Shown here piece after piece: positions 14,889-22,514 of a stretch of DNA of 64,000 nt (positions are counted from its first letter, which is position 1; each line of letters begins with the position of its first letter). The notes beneath the pieces are model-generated. The model was not told the origin of the DNA, made no database searches, and saw nothing but the letters and a program-made list of their open reading frames with translations. The stretch is taken from the NCBI GenBank assembly GCA_035551475.1, contig DASZMX010000133.1, forward strand, positions 21,205 to 85,204. Direction: 5' to 3'. The stretch is from Verrucomicrobiia bacterium (GTDB taxonomy: Bacteria; Verrucomicrobiota; Verrucomicrobiia; Limisphaerales; Palsa-1400). The translations under genes and the position numbers were made by a program.

Positions 14889-15722
14889 CTACTTGGGGGC
14901 GGCAAGTTGGGCTTTCACTTCCGCGATGGATTTGGCGATGGTTTCCTTGTCCGGCGAATACTTTTGCAACTCGGTAAGATCCGCCAGCAATTGCTGCCGG
15001 TTCCCCTCCTCCTTGTCGAGCAAGACCAGCTCGCCGTAAATCTGGTCGCAATCAATCGGGTCGGGTTTATCCCCGCGGGCCTCGTGGCGGTTCCATTTTT
15101 CCAACGCGATATGGAAAAGGTTGCGCGCAGTCCGGGGGTCGTTTTTGACATGCGCGTAAATACGGCCCAGCGCGGTCAGAATGTCCACGTTGTCTGGATT
15201 GGCGCGCAAGCCTTCGCGCAGGAAAGCCTCCGCCTCCTGCGGTTGTTTCAAGCGGGACAGCCAATAGGCGCCGGTGATGTAGCTGTCGGGATCCTGGGGA
15301 TCGAGCGCGGCGGAGAGCTTGAGCCACGGGAGCATCTCGCGCTCGTTCCCCCCAGAGAGATGCGTGTGCTCGGTGGGGTAAAAGTTCCGCCCAAACTTGT
15401 CAATAAAATCTCGTGGCGCCCCCAGGAAATTGCCTTCCTCTTCCTCGTGATGCTCATCATGGCCGGGCTCCTCGGCGGCCATGTGGGAATGGCCGCCGCC
15501 GCGCGGATGGTCGAAGATGCCGGGATAAAAACCGCTGTGAAAATAAGCGTCCGCCTTGGCGAAGAAATGATGCGCAAAGAGGCGGCGGCTGTCGCCCAGC
15601 AGCGACACCAGCAGGCTGGCGGAATTGCCGGCGCTATTATTGACCTCTTGAAAATACGGATCGAGGGTGGTGGCGAGGGTAAAACAGCACACGGCAATAA
15701 GCGCGAGCAAGGCCTTTTTCAT
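14889..15722 (-). CDS. exported TPR-repeat protein with His/Glu-rich segment
   Basis: Start moved to ATG 15722 (MKKALLALIAVCCFTLATT signal/anchor), which forms an ATGA overlap with the permease stop. Contains HPRGGGHSHMAAEEPGHDEHHEEEEG and TPR-like repeats (EAEAFLREGLRANPDNVDILTALGRIYAHVKNDPRTARNLFHIALEKW). Confidence 0.7.
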   Translation of the reverse strand: MKKALLALIAVCCFTLATTLDPYFQEVNNSAGNSASLLVSLLGDSRRLFAHHFFAKADAYFHSGFYPGIFDHPRGGGHSHMAAEEPGHDEHHEEEEGNFLGAPRDFIDKFGRNFYPTEHTHLSGGNEREMLPWLKLSAALDPQDPDSYITGAYWLSRLKQPQEAEAFLREGLRANPDNVDILTALGRIYAHVKNDPRTARNLFHIALEKWNRHEARGDKPDPIDCDQIYGELVLLDKEEGNRQQLLADLTELQKYSPDKETIAKSIAEVKAQLAAPK

Positions 15723-16498
15723 ACCGTGAGGGCTTTGCGGCGAAAGATCCCCCAAGCCAGGGCCAGCAGGAAAACTGAATACAGCGCCCCGTAAAGGGTC
15801 GCCCCCTCCACCGCCAGCGCCGTGACCGGGGCGTGGTTATGGACAATGATCTTGCGGATGTCGAAGAACTCGAGATGCGGAATAAAATAATAAAGCGCGT
15901 AAGTGATCGCGCCTTCAACCCCGCCAATGCCGGCGGCGATGCGATTTAAATATTGGCCGGCGAAAAGCAATCCGATGATGACGATGAAACAAATCGTGGC
16001 GTTGGACGACGGCGCGGTGAAAACAACGGAACCCAGCAGGACCATCGCCGTCACAATGCCGAGGCAAATCCAGTGCAGCCAGACCGCCTGAAAATAAGGC
16101 GTAAACGCCAGGGCATGCTCGCGCGAGCCAATGATGACGCCGTAGAAAAAATAGAACAGGAGCAGGGAAATGCCGCAGGCCAGCCAGCAGCCAACGAATT
16201 TGCCGCCGATTAATTGCGCGCGAGTGACCGGTTTGGCGAGGAGCGGAAAAATCGTGCGGCTTTCCCGCTCGGCGGGGATTTGCCGCGCGGCCGTCGTGAT
16301 GGCAATGACCAGCGAGCAAACCCAGATCAGCAAGAGACAAATCTCCTTGAGGTAGCGGACGATCTGCTCGTCGTTGAAAATGTTGGCGGAGCCAAGGATG
16401 AGGGTAAGCAAGGCGGTCAGGACGAAAAGCACGTAAAAATCCTTGCGGCGATAAAGCTCCTTGATGACGACCCCAGCCAAAGCGAAGACGTTATTCAT
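15719..16498 (-). CDS. ABC-2 type transporter permease
   Basis: Start moved to ATG 16498 (MNNVFALAGVVIKELYRRKDFYVLF), 2 nt after the ATPase stop. About 6 predicted TM segments; ABC-2/NosY-like size and layout. Confidence 0.75.
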   Translation of the reverse strand: MNNVFALAGVVIKELYRRKDFYVLFVLTALLTLILGSANIFNDEQIVRYLKEICLLLIWVCSLVIAITTAARQIPAERESRTIFPLLAKPVTRAQLIGGKFVGCWLACGISLLLFYFFYGVIIGSREHALAFTPYFQAVWLHWICLGIVTAMVLLGSVVFTAPSSNATICFIVIIGLLFAGQYLNRIAAGIGGVEGAITYALYYFIPHLEFFDIRKIIVHNHAPVTALAVEGATLYGALYSVFLLALAWGIFRRKALTV

Positions 16499-16500
16499 TG

Positions 16501-17256
16501 TCAAGATGACGGTTGCGCGGAATAGCCGATGATTTTCAAAAAAATCTGCTCCAGGTTGCACTGGTATTGCTGGAGGAGAGCCTCCACCCTGCCCTCCACG
16601 CGCAGCCTCCCTTCGTGCAGGATGGCGACGCGATCGCAGACGGTTTCGACTTCGCCCAGTTCGTGCGACGAGAAAAAGACCGTTTTGCCCTGATCCTTGA
16701 GACGTTGGATGATCTCGCGCACTTTCATGCGGCCGAGCGGGTCGAGGCCGCTGGTCGGTTCGTCGAGGATCAGGAGGTCGGGATTGTTAATGAGCGCCTG
16801 GGCCAGACCCACGCGTTGCTGCATGCCTTTGGAATACGTTTTAATCAGGCGTTTGCGGGCGCCTTCCAATTCCACCAGCTTCAACACATCCGCAATGCGC
16901 TGCTCCCGTTCGGCGCGGGGGATTTTAAAAATTTTCGCGTAGAAGCGGAGCAATTCCTCGGTATTGAGAAATTTGTAGTAATAAGTCAGCTCCGGAAGGT
17001 AGCCGATTCGCTGGCGGGCGATGGGTTTGCGCACATCGACGCCAAAGATGGAGGCCGAGCCGGACGTCGGATTCACGAACCCCAGCAAGACGTTCATGGT
17101 GGTGGTTTTGCCCGCGCCATTGGGGCCGAGAAAGCCGAAAACCTCGCCTTGCTGAATGCGCAAATTGAGGCCGTCCACCGCGAGCTTGCTCTTCCCACGC
17201 AGGTCGCGGCTGGGGAATTCCACGCGCAAATCGGCAATTTCGAGCACGGCGTTCAC
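16501..17256 (-). CDS. ABC transporter ATP-binding protein
   Basis: Walker A GPNGAGKTTT, signature YSKGMQQR, Walker B LLILDEPTSGLD. Start is ambiguous (TTG 17289, GTG 17256 or GTG 17247); 17256 is given. Confidence 0.85.
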   Translation of the reverse strand: MNAVLEIADLRVEFPSRDLRGKSKLAVDGLNLRIQQGEVFGFLGPNGAGKTTTMNVLLGFVNPTSGSASIFGVDVRKPIARQRIGYLPELTYYYKFLNTEELLRFYAKIFKIPRAEREQRIADVLKLVELEGARKRLIKTYSKGMQQRVGLAQALINNPDLLILDEPTSGLDPLGRMKVREIIQRLKDQGKTVFFSSHELGEVETVCDRVAILHEGRLRVEGRVEALLQQYQCNLEQIFLKIIGYSAQPSS

Positions 17257-17314
17257 ACAGCAAGAATATGACCAATCAACATAATTCAAAGCGCAAAAAG
17301 CCGGAAACCCGGCT

Positions 17315-19474
17315 TTACGTGCAGTAGCTGCTGATGGCCTGGCGCCAGGAAGGGGCCAAGGTTGTTTCGGGGCGCAGCCAAATCTGCCGGTGCATCCAGG
17401 CCATGGAATCGGCGTCCGAAAGAATGATCATTTTTTCATCGGGGCGAAGTTCGTCAAACCCGCGCACGATGAGCTTTTCCGCGATCCATTTGACGTCAGG
17501 CCCGCTGGCGCCGATTTTCGCCAGGGCCTGGGCGGATTCCGGATTGAGCTGGGCTTCGCGCAACATCGAGACGTGGATGGCGTTCAGATATGGATCAACG
17601 ACGCTTTGAATGAGATGCGGAATCTGGGGCCCGGCCGCCTCGTCTTGTTCGGCCAGAGCCAGACGGGTTTGGAGCGCGACCAATTCCGGCGGAGGCGAGG
17701 TTTCCTCCGGAGTCAGGAAGAGGCCGAAATCCTTGGCAATATCGCCCCAGCGGGCGCGGCTGGTGAAAACGCTCAGCGGAATCGCCAGCGCCATGCCCAG
17801 GAACAAGGGCAGAAACCAAAAAAATGTGTTGGGCATAAACCACAAGATGATTCCACCCCACCCCAAACCAATGGCGGTTTGCCACCAATGCTGGCGCAAG
17901 GCATAGGCCCAGGAATTGCCTTCCGCGGTGCGGGTTTGCGTTCCCCAATCAATCGTTTTGCCGCGCAGAATGGTGAAGACGAAACGCGTGTGCCAGAGCA
18001 TTTGCAGCGGCGCGTGCAGCGTGGAAAATGCTGTTTCCGCAATGGTGCCCACAAGAATATGCGCCATGCCGCCAAAAGCCTGCCGACGCTGGTGGTCGAA
18101 GAAGGCGTCAATCACCGCGAGAACGCGCGGCACCAGCAGGACGCCCATGCAAAGGAGGAACACGAGAAAAGCGTGGGCGGCGGCATCGAGATCCAGGTCC
18201 GCCATCCAGCTATGCACGGTGATTTGCGAGAGGCCGATGGCGCTGGTCAAAAGCCACATCCAATAAAACGTGACGAGAAAGGCGAGCCAAAGCGGACTGG
18301 CGAGATACCCGAAAATTCCCTGCACCAAATGGATGCGGCTGATGCCATGCAAACCGCGCGCCCCGAGCACCATCATGTGCTGGAGATTGCCCTGGCACCA
18401 CCGCCGGTCGCGCTTGGCATTCTCAATCATGTCAGGAGGCCCCTCCTCGTAGCTGCCATCCAATTGCCACGCCAGCCACACCTGGGAATTTTCGCGCAGC
18501 AACAAAGCAGCTTCCACAAAATCGTGCGAGAGAATGAAGCCGCCGAAGGGTTTGCGCCCGGGCAATTGCGGCAGCGCGCAAAATTTCATGAACGTCTCGG
18601 TGCGAATAATGGCGTTGTGCCCCCAATAATTCGCAAAACCCTCGGACCAATGGTCGAGCCCGCGAATAAAAATCGGCGTGTAAAACCGATTGGAAAATTG
18701 CTGCATGCGCCCGAACAGCGAGCGCGCGTTGAAAATGCCGGGCACCGTTTGGATGAGGCCGCTGGCGGGATTGGCCTCCATCAAATTCACAAGATTCACG
18801 ATGGTGCGCCCATGCATGACGCTATCGGCGTCGAACGTGATGAAGTAACGGTAGCGCTGGCCCCAAACGCTCAAAAATTCCCGGATATTGCCGGACTTTT
18901 TGCCCTCGTTGTCCACCCGGCGCCGGTAATAAATGCGGCTCATGCCGCCCGTTTTCTGGATGAGTTTTTGCCAGGCCTTTTCCTCCTCGATCCATTTTTC
19001 CGGATCGGTGGAATCGCTCAGGATAAAAAAATCAAAGCGCTCCACCTGCCCCGCGCTTTTCAGGGAATTATAGGTGATGCGCAGGCCCTCGTACACGCGC
19101 GTAATATCTTCGTTGTAGATGGGAAAAAGAATGGCGGTGTTCGCGGCGGGATCGATGGGATCATCCGCTTGAATGGAAGCCGGCCGATGCACCAAATCAA
19201 TGCGGCGCAAAACGAAACCATAAAGCGCGTGCATGAAGCCAATCGCCGCGAAGAAAAAAAGCAGGAAAAATAAAACCAGCAGAATGGTGCGCGAGCCCGA
19301 CCACCCTGTGCGCCACAAAAGATCAGCGAAAAACACCGACACAAAACACGTCAAGAACATCGCCAGGGAATACAAGCTGAACAGACGCAGCCCGCGCACC
19401 ACCGGGGAAGCGGGCGTCAGGATCAGCCGTGAGGCGGCTTCGGCGGCAGGCATGGTCTCCGGCTCCGAAATCAT
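17315..19474 (-). CDS. opgH: glucans biosynthesis glucosyltransferase H (GT2, OpgH/MdoH)
   Basis: ILFPIYNEDITRV, GKKSGNIREF, ITFDADSVM and RDRRWCQGNLQH (QxxRW-type), flanked by multiple TM segments. Start moved to ATG 19474 (MISEPET), 2 nt after the upstream stop. Confidence 0.85.
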   Translation of the reverse strand: MISEPETMPAAEAASRLILTPASPVVRGLRLFSLYSLAMFLTCFVSVFFADLLWRTGWSGSRTILLVLFFLLFFFAAIGFMHALYGFVLRRIDLVHRPASIQADDPIDPAANTAILFPIYNEDITRVYEGLRITYNSLKSAGQVERFDFFILSDSTDPEKWIEEEKAWQKLIQKTGGMSRIYYRRRVDNEGKKSGNIREFLSVWGQRYRYFITFDADSVMHGRTIVNLVNLMEANPASGLIQTVPGIFNARSLFGRMQQFSNRFYTPIFIRGLDHWSEGFANYWGHNAIIRTETFMKFCALPQLPGRKPFGGFILSHDFVEAALLLRENSQVWLAWQLDGSYEEGPPDMIENAKRDRRWCQGNLQHMMVLGARGLHGISRIHLVQGIFGYLASPLWLAFLVTFYWMWLLTSAIGLSQITVHSWMADLDLDAAAHAFLVFLLCMGVLLVPRVLAVIDAFFDHQRRQAFGGMAHILVGTIAETAFSTLHAPLQMLWHTRFVFTILRGKTIDWGTQTRTAEGNSWAYALRQHWWQTAIGLGWGGIILWFMPNTFFWFLPLFLGMALAIPLSVFTSRARWGDIAKDFGLFLTPEETSPPPELVALQTRLALAEQDEAAGPQIPHLIQSVVDPYLNAIHVSMLREAQLNPESAQALAKIGASGPDVKWIAEKLIVRGFDELRPDEKMIILSDADSMAWMHRQIWLRPETTLAPSWRQAISSYCT

Positions 19475-19476
19475 AA

Positions 19477-20046
19477 TCAATGGGTGCGAATGAAAATGAA
19501 AATGAGGATCAGGATAAAGAGCGTCCAAGTGGAGAAAACCGACACTTGCAAAAAGCGGGTCTGAGTCAACTCCACGATGGCGCCCATCGGGCCCAGATCA
19601 AGTGGGCGCGGATCCATGCGCGCGAGCTGAAATTCCGGCCCGGCGCGCAGGTAGGCTTCGCGCATGGCGGTGACGAATTCCTCGGGCCACGGCCCTGGCG
19701 CCAGAAACTGGTCCTGCCAGCGCCCGGGCATGTCAGCGAGGATCAGCGCCAGCCGGCCGCGCGTCGGCAGCATATTCTTGGTTTCGGGCGTGGCGCCGAG
19801 AATCTCCTCAAACCACTTGATGATGAGCCGGTCCATTTCCTCCACGGCCAGCTCGGTCGGGGTCAGGTTGGGCTCGGCCGCGGCGCGTTCCATGGCGCGA
19901 TCAAGCACATGCAAGACGAGCTTGCCGAGAACGACTTTATTGCGCAATTGCAACGCGTAGAAGTAGCGCTCCACCTTTGCATAGGCGGCGTTCCATTCTC
20001 CCAGCGGACGGCCCCCCGCTCCTGCGCTCACGGGCAAGACGCTCAT
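19477..20046 (-). CDS. hypothetical tail-anchored protein encoded between opgG and opgH
   Basis: 189 aa from ATG 20046 (ATGA overlap with the opgG stop at 20043-20046). Soluble helical-looking body with a single C-terminal TM (VFSTWTLFILILIFIFI). No family recognised. Confidence 0.6.
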   Translation of the reverse strand: MSVLPVSAGAGGRPLGEWNAAYAKVERYFYALQLRNKVVLGKLVLHVLDRAMERAAAEPNLTPTELAVEEMDRLIIKWFEEILGATPETKNMLPTRGRLALILADMPGRWQDQFLAPGPWPEEFVTAMREAYLRAGPEFQLARMDPRPLDLGPMGAIVELTQTRFLQVSVFSTWTLFILILIFIFIRTH

Positions 20047-21617
20047 GGCTGATTCAGGAGGTCGGTCCATGTTTCAGTGACGGCTTTGTCGTGGCGCGTC
20101 AAGGTGCAACGGACATCAATGGGATTTTCATCTTTACGATCCAGCTTGAGCATCACGCGCCACGCGCTGGCGCCGGGAATTTTGAGCGCCTGGGTGTCGA
20201 TGATCACGCCGTTGTCGCTGCAACTGGCAATCACTTGCGGCGGATCCGCTTCGGACAAGGCGGCCAGCGCCGGACCGTCAAAATCAATGGCGATCTGGCG
20301 ACGATGGGCCGAAACCGTGTCGCCCCCCACGCGCGTATTGACAACCTTGTTGGTGGAAAGCTTCAAATCGGTTTCGCTGGTCCATTCTTGCGTGTAGCCG
20401 AAACGCAAAGGGCGCAGCGGGAGCGGCATTTGTTTCGGGCTCCAAAAAGCGACGATATTATCCAAGCCTTCGTAGCGGGTGCTCAACTCGACGAGGTTAA
20501 CTTCGCCTTCCCCCCAATTGCCGTGCGGCTGCACCCAAACGCTCGGGACGTGATGGTAAAAATTGAACAAGTCTTCGTAGGCGGCGAGATCGCGATTCCG
20601 CTGGAGCAGGCCAAATCCCACGAGATTCGTCGTGAAAAAGCGCTGGTGGATGAGGCGCGGCGGATTATCCAGCGGGCGCCAAAGCATTTCGCCATTGCCA
20701 AAACTCATGAGCAGCCCGTCGCTGTCATGCACCGCGGAGCGATAGTCGTTGAACCGCGCCTCTGAAGCCGGGCCAAACCAAAACATGCTGGTGAGCGGGG
20801 CCAGGCCAAGCGTGGCGGTGGGCAGGCGATTGGGGTCGGCGGCGTGAATGTTGACGCGTTCGCGCAGAAATAAAACGGCGTCGATGTCCGCCACGGTGGT
20901 TTCGCCAGGACGAATGCGAAACTCATAGGCCCCCGTGCAACTAACGCTGTCCAGCAGCGCGAAAAGGTGGAGCGGGTCGTCCTTGCCTTCGGGTTTGCCG
21001 AGCCACCAATCCGTGAAGATGGGAAATTCCTCCGAGCGATCTGATTCGCCGCAATCCAGCGCCAGGCCGCGCGCGGATTGACCGTAGCGCTGCCCCTTGC
21101 CCAGCAGCCGGTAATAGCTCGCGCCCAGAAAGGCGCCCAACTCATCCATGCGCCCGGGATCATTCAGCGCGCACAAGACCCGAAAACCGGCATAGCCGGT
21201 ATTGGCCGGAACCTGCTGTTTAAAGCGGTGGGCGCCGTAATCAAAAAAATCGGAAACGAACCGGATGTCCTGGACATGGCCGGGCACGAATTCATTCACG
21301 CGCACCGGTTCTTCATACAGATACCCGGGATGGAAAAACTCGACCATGTACGGCGATTTGCCGTCGTTCCACAGCGCGCGTTCCCGGCGGAAGCGAATTT
21401 CACGATAGGCGTCATAATCCAGCTTATCGGCCTTGAGGAATGCCGGGAGATCGGCCCGCGGCGAATGAAACGGGCGCCGGGCGCGATCGAGGGCGGCCTG
21501 GGCGACGTATTCGAGGTTAATATTCGCCGGGCGGATGGTCGCCAGCGTGGCGAGCGCGGTGGAGAAGAAGAGGATTCCCACCCGCAGTTGGAGTGAGCCA
21601 AAGTTGCGTTGATGCAT
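20043..21617 (-). CDS. opgG: periplasmic glucans biosynthesis protein (OpgG/OpgD, MdoG family)
   Basis: C-terminal 524 aa of the 777-aa track ORF, from ATG 21617: signal-like MHQRNFGSLQLRVGILFFSTALATLA, then LDYDAYREIRFRRERALW and FFHPGYLYEEPVRVNEF. The upstream 253 codons are antisense to the ABC ATPase gene and were rejected. Confidence 0.85.
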   Translation of the reverse strand: MHQRNFGSLQLRVGILFFSTALATLATIRPANINLEYVAQAALDRARRPFHSPRADLPAFLKADKLDYDAYREIRFRRERALWNDGKSPYMVEFFHPGYLYEEPVRVNEFVPGHVQDIRFVSDFFDYGAHRFKQQVPANTGYAGFRVLCALNDPGRMDELGAFLGASYYRLLGKGQRYGQSARGLALDCGESDRSEEFPIFTDWWLGKPEGKDDPLHLFALLDSVSCTGAYEFRIRPGETTVADIDAVLFLRERVNIHAADPNRLPTATLGLAPLTSMFWFGPASEARFNDYRSAVHDSDGLLMSFGNGEMLWRPLDNPPRLIHQRFFTTNLVGFGLLQRNRDLAAYEDLFNFYHHVPSVWVQPHGNWGEGEVNLVELSTRYEGLDNIVAFWSPKQMPLPLRPLRFGYTQEWTSETDLKLSTNKVVNTRVGGDTVSAHRRQIAIDFDGPALAALSEADPPQVIASCSDNGVIIDTQALKIPGASAWRVMLKLDRKDENPIDVRCTLTRHDKAVTETWTDLLNQP

Positions 21618-21740
21618 TCGTTGCAATCGTCGGCTGAGTATAAGACAAACCTGGGGTAAAATGCGAGCCTCGTTTGCTTGCCTTTGGATCGGACGCCGTT
21701 TCGACTGTGCAAACCAAGGCAGCGTGCTATTGTCCCGCGC

Positions 21741-22514
21741 ATGGACATACCGCCCCTCGCGCCCGCCATCCCCGCGCCGCTGATCGAGGTCCTTGGATTG
21801 ACAAAGCTCTACGGCGAATTCACCGCCGTGAAAGAATTGTCCTTCGCCGTGCGGCCGGGTGAAGTCATCGGTTTGGTGGGGCCCAATGGCGCCGGCAAAA
21901 CCACCACACTCCGCTGCCTGGCAGGCATCATCCCGCCGTCGCGCGGCGCCGTTAAAATTTGCGGTTTCGATCTCAGCCAGGCCCCCATCGAGGCCAAACG
22001 CCGGCTGGCGTTTTTCCCCGACGAGCCGCGCCTGTTCGAATATCTGACAGTCGAACAGCACCTGGCTTTCACCGCGCGGATTTATGGCGTGGCGGATTGG
22101 AAGGCGCGAAGCGGGCCGTTGCTCCAGGAATTGGAAATCGCAGATAAAGCGGACAAGCTGCCGGGGGAATTGTCGCGCGGCATGAAACAGAAACTGGCGA
22201 TTGCCTGCGGATTCCTGCATGCGCCGGAAGTGATTTTTCTGGATGAGCCGTTGACGGGATTGGATCCGATTGGAATTCGGCGGATGAAAAATTCCATTTT
22301 CCAGCGGGCCCAAAAGGGCGCGGCCATCCTGATCAGCTCGCATCTGCTCCATTTGCTGCAGGAGGTGTGTTCGCATGTGCTGATTTTGAAGCAGGGCGAA
22401 AAGGTGATCGATGGCACGCTCGAGGAAGTGCGCCAGCGCTATTCGGAAGCGGGCGCGGCCGATCTGGAAGAAGTCTTTTTCCGCGCGACCGGGGAAAGCG
22501 AGGCGAAGACGTGA
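21741..22514 (+). CDS. ABC transporter ATP-binding protein
   Basis: Start at ATG 21741 (MDIPPLAP...IEVLGLTKLYGEF). Walker A GPNGAGKTTTLRC, signature LSRGMKQK, Walker B VIFLDEPLTGLD. Confidence 0.85.
   Translation: MDIPPLAPAIPAPLIEVLGLTKLYGEFTAVKELSFAVRPGEVIGLVGPNGAGKTTTLRCLAGIIPPSRGAVKICGFDLSQAPIEAKRRLAFFPDEPRLFEYLTVEQHLAFTARIYGVADWKARSGPLLQELEIADKADKLPGELSRGMKQKLAIACGFLHAPEVIFLDEPLTGLDPIGIRRMKNSIFQRAQKGAAILISSHLLHLLQEVCSHVLILKQGEKVIDGTLEEVRQRYSEAGAADLEEVFFRATGESEAKT

Follow-up and report, generated by a model that had tools for sequence, protein, structure and literature searches.

In a 64,000-nucleotide stretch of DNA from a Verrucomicrobiia bacterium (contig DASZMX010000133.1, positions 21,205 to 85,204 of the forward strand; the whole stretch is termed 'the window' below, and coordinates are given within it), two genes for the synthesis of osmoregulated periplasmic glucans (OPGs), opgG and opgH, lie on the minus strand with a third gene, here called gene X, between them. 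The first of the three, opgG (20043..21560), encodes periplasmic glucan biosynthesis protein G, a product of ~505 residues including its signal peptide (Pfam PF04349 MdoG, E 5e-160, residues 16-499), and the last, opgH (17315..19474), encodes a glucans biosynthesis glucosyltransferase of 719 residues from glycosyltransferase family 2 (GT2; NCBIfam NF003958, E 7.5e-232, with Pfam GT2 domains). Gene X (19477..20046, minus strand) is an open reading frame (ORF) of its own, with its own stop codon and in a frame different from that of opgH; its translation, a protein of 189 amino acids from an unnamed family that is predicted to be tail-anchored, ends in ...VFSTWTLFILILIFIFIRTH.

Both junctions of gene X are tight. 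Its ATG (20046-20044) overlaps the TGA of opgG (20045-20043) as ATGA (20043..20046, minus strand), which is the geometry of translational coupling, and only the two nucleotides TT lie between its own TGA (19479-19477) and the ATG of opgH (19474), so that the abutting junction occupies 19474..19479. An ORF of this length between opgG and opgH, with this overlap and this gap, was what the original prediction had described, and reading the sequence between flanks identified by PF04349 and NF003958 reproduces that description exactly. The start of the gene is nevertheless ambiguous between 20070 and 20046, because a second in-frame ATG at 20070 would give a protein of 197 residues whose N-terminus (MDRPPESAMSV...) resembles the 'MDLSLESAL...' N-termini of those relatives (8 loci) in which the gene overlaps opgG by 28 nucleotides. 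NCBI annotates the identical protein P0001, from a Verrucomicrobiae metagenome-assembled genome (MAG), at 189 residues.

The synthesis of OPGs is needed for envelope homeostasis and for virulence in many Gram-negative bacteria, and the priming of OpgH, its regulation and its coupling to OpgG are described as still unclear in one published account (PMC10514313). A conserved third protein in the Verrucomicrobiota, bearing a motif that other lineages apparently keep in the N-terminus of OpgH itself, would offer a concrete point of entry to a functional element of the enzyme.

A genuine and conserved gene family

A word-indexed search returned 1,961 homologues of X at E <= 1e-3, ~190-206 amino acids in length and annotated as 'hypothetical', and an exhaustive hidden Markov model (HMM) search covering 1.84 billion cluster representatives yielded 416 clusters at 50% identity, 260 of them with E <= 1e-10. 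When one genome per GTDB species was scanned, relatives of X were found in 290 genomes, nearly all of them MAGs of the Verrucomicrobiota/Limisphaerales. The most divergent members come from metagenome contigs (the one named cluster among them belongs to the Verrucomicrobiota), and a profile search with diverse members gave the same close relatives among its best 120 matches. Two blocks, RGRLALLLAD.P..WQ..FL.P.P.P.EF..AMR..YL and AGP.FQ.S.M.PRP.DLGP, are conserved to ~25% identity, as is the hydrophobic C-terminus; over 88 diverse members, the conserved residues are W18, A21, Y28, A67, W78, R98 and L115. The protein had been described as unknown, and this was borne out both by sequence (the best Pfam match has an E value of 0.26, and NCBIfam gives zero matches) and by the comparison of predicted folds described below.

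GC-rich DNA of the kind found in this region is full of long ORFs on both strands that are not genes, and one of these, of 190 amino acids (19480-20052, plus strand), mirrors gene X on the opposite strand. Such frames give some initial weight to the notion that X is itself a chance or decaying frame in a GC-rich overlap region, without a functional product. The chance of this is negligible, and the notion is effectively refuted: amino-acid conservation extends to ~25% identity, the motifs and the C-terminal transmembrane (TM) helix are preserved across 416 clusters, the AlphaFold2 (AF2) fold is confident, and the gene keeps its position in more than 80 loci. Gene X is confirmed as a genuine conserved gene family, and a set of ~2,000 sequences labelled 'hypothetical protein' thereby gains a biological context and a confident predicted fold for which there is no solved relative.

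A number of contigs (L003, L014, L022, L034, L038, L040, L047, L063, L065 and L080) are typical verrucomicrobial opgG-X-opgH contigs, yet carry labels such as Bifidobacteriaceae, Saccharimonadales, Sulfotelmatobacter and Methylomirabilota; these odd taxon labels are probably errors of MAG binning or labelling. Several unusually long members (P0122, P0175, P0185, P0198, P0235 and P0261), considered as natural fusions of X to OpgH, were rejected as frameshifted read-throughs of the three genes in error-prone assemblies.

Predicted architecture of the protein

The claim that X has one TM helix, placed at the very end of the protein, holds for each of the 88 diverse members (88/88): the hydrophobic segment averages 2.38 on the Kyte-Doolittle scale, and its 19-residue core is followed by a median of 2 residues. 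A second TM helix or a signal peptide was predicted in none of the 88, the next-best hydrophobic window reaching at most 1.22, and X thus has, by prediction, the features of a tail-anchored protein. Since no export signal is available for the domain of 165 residues that precedes the helix, an orientation with the N-terminus, and with it the bulk of the protein, in the cytoplasm appears the most plausible.

An AF2 model built from an alignment of 88 sequences, which replaced an earlier one with a predicted local distance difference test score (pLDDT) of 69.5, has a mean pLDDT of 89 and a predicted template modelling score (pTM) of 0.69. Three blocks can be distinguished in it. Residues 11-135 (19642..20016, minus strand) are modelled with pLDDT 91-98 as a compact, all-helical and presumably cytoplasmic domain, in agreement with the helical body that had been foreseen from the sequence; the segment from ~140 to 160 is modelled with pLDDT 60-73; and residues 164-188 (19483..19557, minus strand) form the sole TM helix, at pLDDT 96 and also identified by hydropathy, after which a single residue remains. 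A Foldseek comparison of the model with 350,542 PDB chains found nothing similar (best E 1.7, TM score at most 0.29), and the matches of the X profile to DOCK DHR2 domains in the PDB (best E 0.019) were dismissed as chance.

A membrane-proximal motif and its resemblance to part of long-form OpgH

The most conserved linear stretch of X lies between the helical domain and the membrane, a predicted 12-20 residues before the TM helix. It has the consensus AGPxFQxSxMxPRPxDLG and reads GPEFQLARMDPRPLDLG in the window (residues 136-152; 19591..19641, minus strand); it is invariant or near-invariant among close relatives, and P137 and M144 are found in at least 90% of the 88 diverse members. That the most conserved part of the protein should also be the least confidently modelled part of the monomer is the pattern to be expected of a segment that becomes ordered upon a partner. 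The first inspection of the sequence had recognised no motif in X; that statement has to be revised, as this one is recognisable and recurs, with moderate similarity, in the N-terminal extension of the long-form OpgH of Cupriavidus.

When the X profile was compared with the OpgH of Cupriavidus metallidurans (868 residues), it matched residues 123-158 (VDTGPEPQRASMVPRQW...) with 12.5-12.8 bits, and the N-extension of Cupriavidus OpgH scores 12.5-17 bits with either the X HMM or an HMM of the motif. With a deeper X profile, hhalign aligned residues 104-163 of X with residues 92-158 of Cupriavidus OpgH over 65 columns (Prob 62%, E 7.7e-5); in E. coli OpgH the segment MPEAKRSSMFPDPW was picked out as the equivalent of the motif, at a level that is not significant (Prob 3.5%). 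As a control, the motif-only HMM was run against the 6,318 ORFs, 80 amino acids or longer, that all six frames of the window and the fetched loci contain, the 88 ORFs above 40 bits being taken as X genes. The best matches after these were C. metallidurans OpgH (15.1 bits), the intervening ORF of Leptospira kobayashii that is discussed below (14.1 bits) and C. campinensis OpgH (10.7 bits); the best unrelated ORF reached 9.5 bits and the remainder 6.5 bits or less. The top ranks taken by Cupriavidus OpgH and by the L. kobayashii ORF among ~6,200 background ORFs argue that the resemblance, though short, is not random. The sequences from E. coli, Mitsuaria, L. biflexa and Sulfitobacter scored at the level of noise in the same control, and for these the resemblance is one seen by eye only.

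The OpgH encoded in the window is a shorter protein than its E. coli namesake: its residues 62-703 align with residues 191-820 of E. coli OpgH at 36% identity (BLASTP), it is without the N-terminal cytoplasmic extension (~130 residues) of the latter, and the C-terminal extension is kept. In E. coli the two extensions fold together as an extra cytoplasmic domain, and the N-extension is credited with the regulation (inhibition) of FtsZ (PMC11389396). A search of the PDB found no OpgH structure. The OpgH proteins of Cupriavidus and E. coli (847 residues) have both extensions and no gene intervenes in their operons; in these two, as in Azospirillum, Mitsuaria, Bradyrhizobium and Sphingomonas, opgH follows opgG immediately, with overlapping or abutting ends. 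Where OpgH has a C-extension, then, a motif-bearing N-extension is present in cis (E. coli, Cupriavidus) or a separate tail-anchored protein is encoded upstream (Verrucomicrobiota, Leptospira), and where alphaproteobacterial OpgH is without the C-extension there is either no such protein (Azospirillum, Bradyrhizobium, Sphingomonas) or a small ORF only (Sulfitobacter). This pattern of cis and trans forms is a correlation in a small sample, and not proof.

The likeness between X and the N-extension of long-form OpgH is one of place and, more tentatively, of sequence, both being (for X by prediction) cytoplasmic and membrane-proximal; from the motif, GPEPQRASMVPRQW in Cupriavidus and its presumed equivalent in E. 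coli, it is some tens of residues to the next TM helix. There are also differences: the extension is fused to OpgH and has no counterpart of the helical residues 11-100 of X, and X adds a TM helix of its own. A simple fission of an ancestral OpgH gene into X and a shorter OpgH was considered and rejected, because the OpgH of the window already has the equivalents of both N-terminal helices (TM1 and TM2) of the E. coli and Cupriavidus proteins, which makes the helix of X an extra one.

The FtsZ inhibition that is credited to the very region which X resembles (PMC11389396) raises the alternative of a regulatory or moonlighting adaptor, comparable to the FtsZ-binding N-domain of E. coli OpgH, that would link processes such as cell division or envelope stress signalling with OPG synthesis, osmolarity or the status of UDP-glucose. 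The helical domain, well conserved over residues 11-135 and yet absent from OpgH N-extensions, is suggestive of an additional function or partner. There is, however, no consistent association of X with a neighbouring regulator, sigma factor or division gene, and the neighbourhoods vary outside the three-gene unit; neither the PDB profile search nor Foldseek revealed similarity to a known regulatory fold, and the similarity to the E. coli N-domain itself is not significant. On this evidence, we regard an adaptor role as unlikely.

Conservation of gene order

Conservation of the gene order across relatives had been set beforehand as a check on the proposal, and its outcome was strongly positive. 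A tblastn search of 80 genome loci with the OpgG, X and OpgH proteins of the window placed opgG immediately before X in 79 of them, the sequence of the remaining locus containing nothing upstream, and opgH immediately after X in 71. The overlap of opgG with X is 16 nucleotides in 38 loci, 4 in 21 and 28 in 8, and X is separated from opgH by +3 nucleotides in 30 loci and elsewhere by +1 to +5, or overlaps it by 1-29. Nearly every junction is thus an overlap or a gap of no more than 5 nucleotides, a geometry typical of translationally coupled genes of an operon. The order opgG-X-opgH is kept where the identity of X has fallen to 39% (L081), 34% (L083) and 26% (L086), with overlapping junctions in the first two. 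In another divergent locus (L085:6601-6960), a gene of the 23S rRNA intervening-sequence protein family (PF05635) has been inserted between opgG and X.

Exceptions to the three-gene order occur in both directions. Six loci (L007, L026, L028, L041, L042 and L048), of which L007 and L028 were examined one ORF at a time, have opgG-X and several kilobases of downstream DNA with no opgH match nearby, and one locus (L084) has X-opgH with opgG absent. The occurrence of either pair alone indicates that X is linked to the OPG system as a whole and not strictly to OpgH. The proposal that X is a candidate accessory or regulatory subunit of OPG synthesis thus emerges well founded, and is well supported by conservation and synteny, with the qualification that the linkage is to the whole system.

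The same loci bear on the question of whether X might work mainly with OpgG, as a membrane dock or assembly factor which, through its TM helix and short periplasmic tail, would place the periplasmic glucanase/transglycosylase at the exit of OpgH. The start of X overlaps the 3' end of opgG in nearly all loci, opgG-X occurs where opgH is missing, and in some of the loci without opgH the OpgG is more divergent (52-55% identity), as would fit a co-duplication of opgG and X; moreover, one study argues for a cofactor of OpgG other than OpgH (PMC10514313). The predicted topology speaks to the contrary. Beyond the TM helix there are only ~2-6 residues, and the domain of 165 residues lacks a signal peptide for export; with hardly any of X able to enter the periplasm, OpgG is less likely as the primary partner. 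The locus that retains X-opgH in the absence of opgG, and the match of the motif to a cytoplasmic part of OpgH and not to OpgG, point in the same direction, and a primary partnership with OpgG strikes us as distinctly improbable.

Comparison with known systems

Precedent for a third gene in this position comes from the Alphaproteobacteria. In Rhodobacter (Cereibacter) sphaeroides, opgI is reportedly needed for the synthesis of the OPG backbone. As related in PMC10514313, which cites Cogez et al. 2002 (Eur J Biochem 269:2473), opgI is the third gene between opgG and opgH in an opgGIH-opgC operon, and it is opgI and opgH together that complement an opgH mutant of E. coli. The proposal for X had started from the assumption that characterised operons have opgG next to opgH. 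This assumption is incomplete: it is correct for E. coli and does not hold for the R. sphaeroides operon as that source presents it (PMC10514313). Gene X resembles opgI in being likewise encoded between opgG and opgH in one putative transcription unit, and it may account for the long-unexplained requirement for opgI in Rhodobacter.

Proxies for OpgI were found by position. Sulfitobacter plasmids carry opgG, an ORF of 56 amino acids, mdoH and opgC, with a 4-nucleotide overlap (for example at L089:4756-4926, Sulfitobacter sp. D7 p1SUD7), and this small ORF is conserved on 13 of them; in Qingshengfaniella (L090:4552-4752), an unannotated ORF of 66 amino acids lies between opgG and mdoH, which is followed by opgC. 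The two small ORFs have in common the motif 'PLAMP(R/K)Q', which resembles the 'SxMxPRP' of X by eye only; Sphingomonas and Bradyrhizobium carry it at the N-terminus of OpgH itself. Unlike X, these proxies are only 56-66 residues long and lack a TM helix, and no similarity to X as an entire protein could be detected in them: compared with the X profile, they (as stand-ins by position for R. sphaeroides OpgI) both scored below 0 bits by hmmsearch, with an hhalign Prob of 0.2% for Sulfitobacter and 0.4 bits in the motif control.

Another parallel is found on plasmids of Leptospira, where an ORF lies between an opgD/G-like gene and mdoH in L. biflexa p74 (L092:3342-3731; WP_012476875, 129 residues) and in L. 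kobayashii pE30-1 (L094:3450-3818; WP_135354946, 122 residues). These ORFs share with X the position, the overlapping or abutting codons, a helical N-terminal part and a TM helix at the extreme C-terminus; they differ in being ~60 residues shorter and in belonging to another phylum. Before the helix they carry 'SMVP(R/K)', and the L. kobayashii version, LTSMVPRNLDF, matches the X motif with 14 bits (that of L. biflexa, at 2 bits, is in the noise). An hhalign comparison of X with the Leptospira ORF gave two co-linear local matches, each with a Prob of ~20% and an E value of ~1e-3; a family search from the Leptospira protein collected only 3 sequences, too few for a strong profile. The evidence that the Leptospira ORFs are homologous to X, and would represent its counterpart in another phylum, is no more than suggestive.

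Taken at its broadest, this set of comparisons could mean that X, the Leptospira ORFs, the small ORFs of the Rhodobacterales and the N-extension of beta- and gammaproteobacterial OpgH are all forms of one ancient module, and that a short, membrane-proximal '[SA]-M-x-P-[RK]' motif is essential to every OpgH-type beta-1,2-glucan synthase (for example in the gating or priming of the channel or in its osmotic control), being supplied in cis or in trans according to phylum. If this were so, it would explain the need for opgI in Rhodobacter and would reveal an unrecognised and universally required part of the OPG synthase; we consider so inclusive a scheme possible, but doubtful.

A further system invites comparison on grounds of architecture. 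In the bacterial cellulose synthase BcsA-BcsB, BcsB is the partner of a membrane-embedded processive GT2 enzyme and has one C-terminal TM helix. X is similarly encoded beside a membrane-embedded processive GT2 glucan synthase and is apparently held by one C-terminal helix. The two differ in that BcsB is exported and has its bulk in the periplasm, whereas X is without a signal peptide and its bulk is predicted to be cytoplasmic; no similarity of sequence or fold between them was found by the PDB profile search or by Foldseek against the PDB.

A putative third component of the OPG synthase

Taken together, these observations lead us to favour, with somewhat better than even confidence, the view that X is a dedicated, tail-anchored third component of the OPG synthase that docks on OpgH and supplies in trans the function of the N-extension of long-form OpgH. 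X would thus constitute a new protein family in a putative role for which OpgI and the OpgH N-extension provide known precedent. Binding to OpgH, a cytoplasmic orientation and an effect on glucan synthesis or its regulation are each what we infer from the features described above.

According to this scheme, X would share its transcript with OpgG and OpgH and have its translation coupled to theirs, and its C-terminal helix would insert it in the inner membrane beside OpgH. The helical domain of ~135 residues and the linear motif would then face the cytoplasm, where the motif (AGPxFQxSxMxPRPxDLG) and the TM helix would together dock on the cytoplasmic or membrane face of OpgH, the helical domain probably being presented to the cytoplasmic face as well. 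In this manner, X may supply in trans the module that long OpgH proteins, such as those of Cupriavidus and E. coli, have in cis at the N-terminus. The role of that module may be structural, regulatory (in response to osmolarity, UDP-glucose or division) or one of priming.

Several points weigh against such a role for X. The resemblance to the N-extension of OpgH extends over a short stretch and is moderate in strength (Prob 62% for Cupriavidus and 3.5% for E. coli), and Mitsuaria OpgH lies in the noise of the motif control with 5.5 bits. The TM helix of X is extra relative to OpgH, in that the equivalents of TM1 and TM2 are already present in the OpgH of the window, and the charge bias around the helix is weak (+0.84 versus +0.57), so that the orientation follows from the lack of an export signal more than from the flanking charges. 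Short OpgH forms exist with no intervening gene in Azospirillum, Bradyrhizobium and Sphingomonas; in the six loci noted above, opgG-X persists apart from opgH; and, among the X homologues, no genuine fusion to OpgH was found.

Neighbouring genes

The ORF that is obtained mechanically for opgG (20043-22376, minus strand; 777 amino acids) is over-extended, the OpgG domain and its signal peptide starting at ~21560; the 270 codons 5' of that start overlap a divergent ATP-binding cassette (ABC) gene and do not belong to OpgG. Scans for promoters and terminators gave counts no higher than those of shuffled sequence and placed no site at the gene junctions.

Some 25 nucleotides beyond the stop codon of opgH, and on the same strand, the window encodes an ABC ATPase (PF00005), an ABC-2 permease and a tetratricopeptide repeat (TPR) protein (14889-17289, minus strand). 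The permease and the TPR protein had zero tblastn matches in the related loci, and matches to the ATPase were found only upstream of opgG; the ABC-2 transporter was accordingly rejected as a member of the OPG system, as it is not conserved beside opgH in relatives. Upstream of opgG, a divergently oriented pair encodes a further ABC ATPase and a membrane protein described as a 'putative ABC exporter' (PF16962; 21678-24259, plus strand). In 25 related loci an ATPase match of ~34-38% identity is likewise present on the upstream side of opgG, and this neighbour may be semi-conserved.

Glycosidases of glycoside hydrolase family 3 (GH3) were seen near opgH on two occasions: one follows opgH in the X locus of 26% identity (L086:4515-6785), and the other lies beside opgH in convergent orientation in Sphingomonas (L098:4567-6843). 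Such an enzyme could be a partner in the degradation of beta-1,2-glucooligosaccharides.

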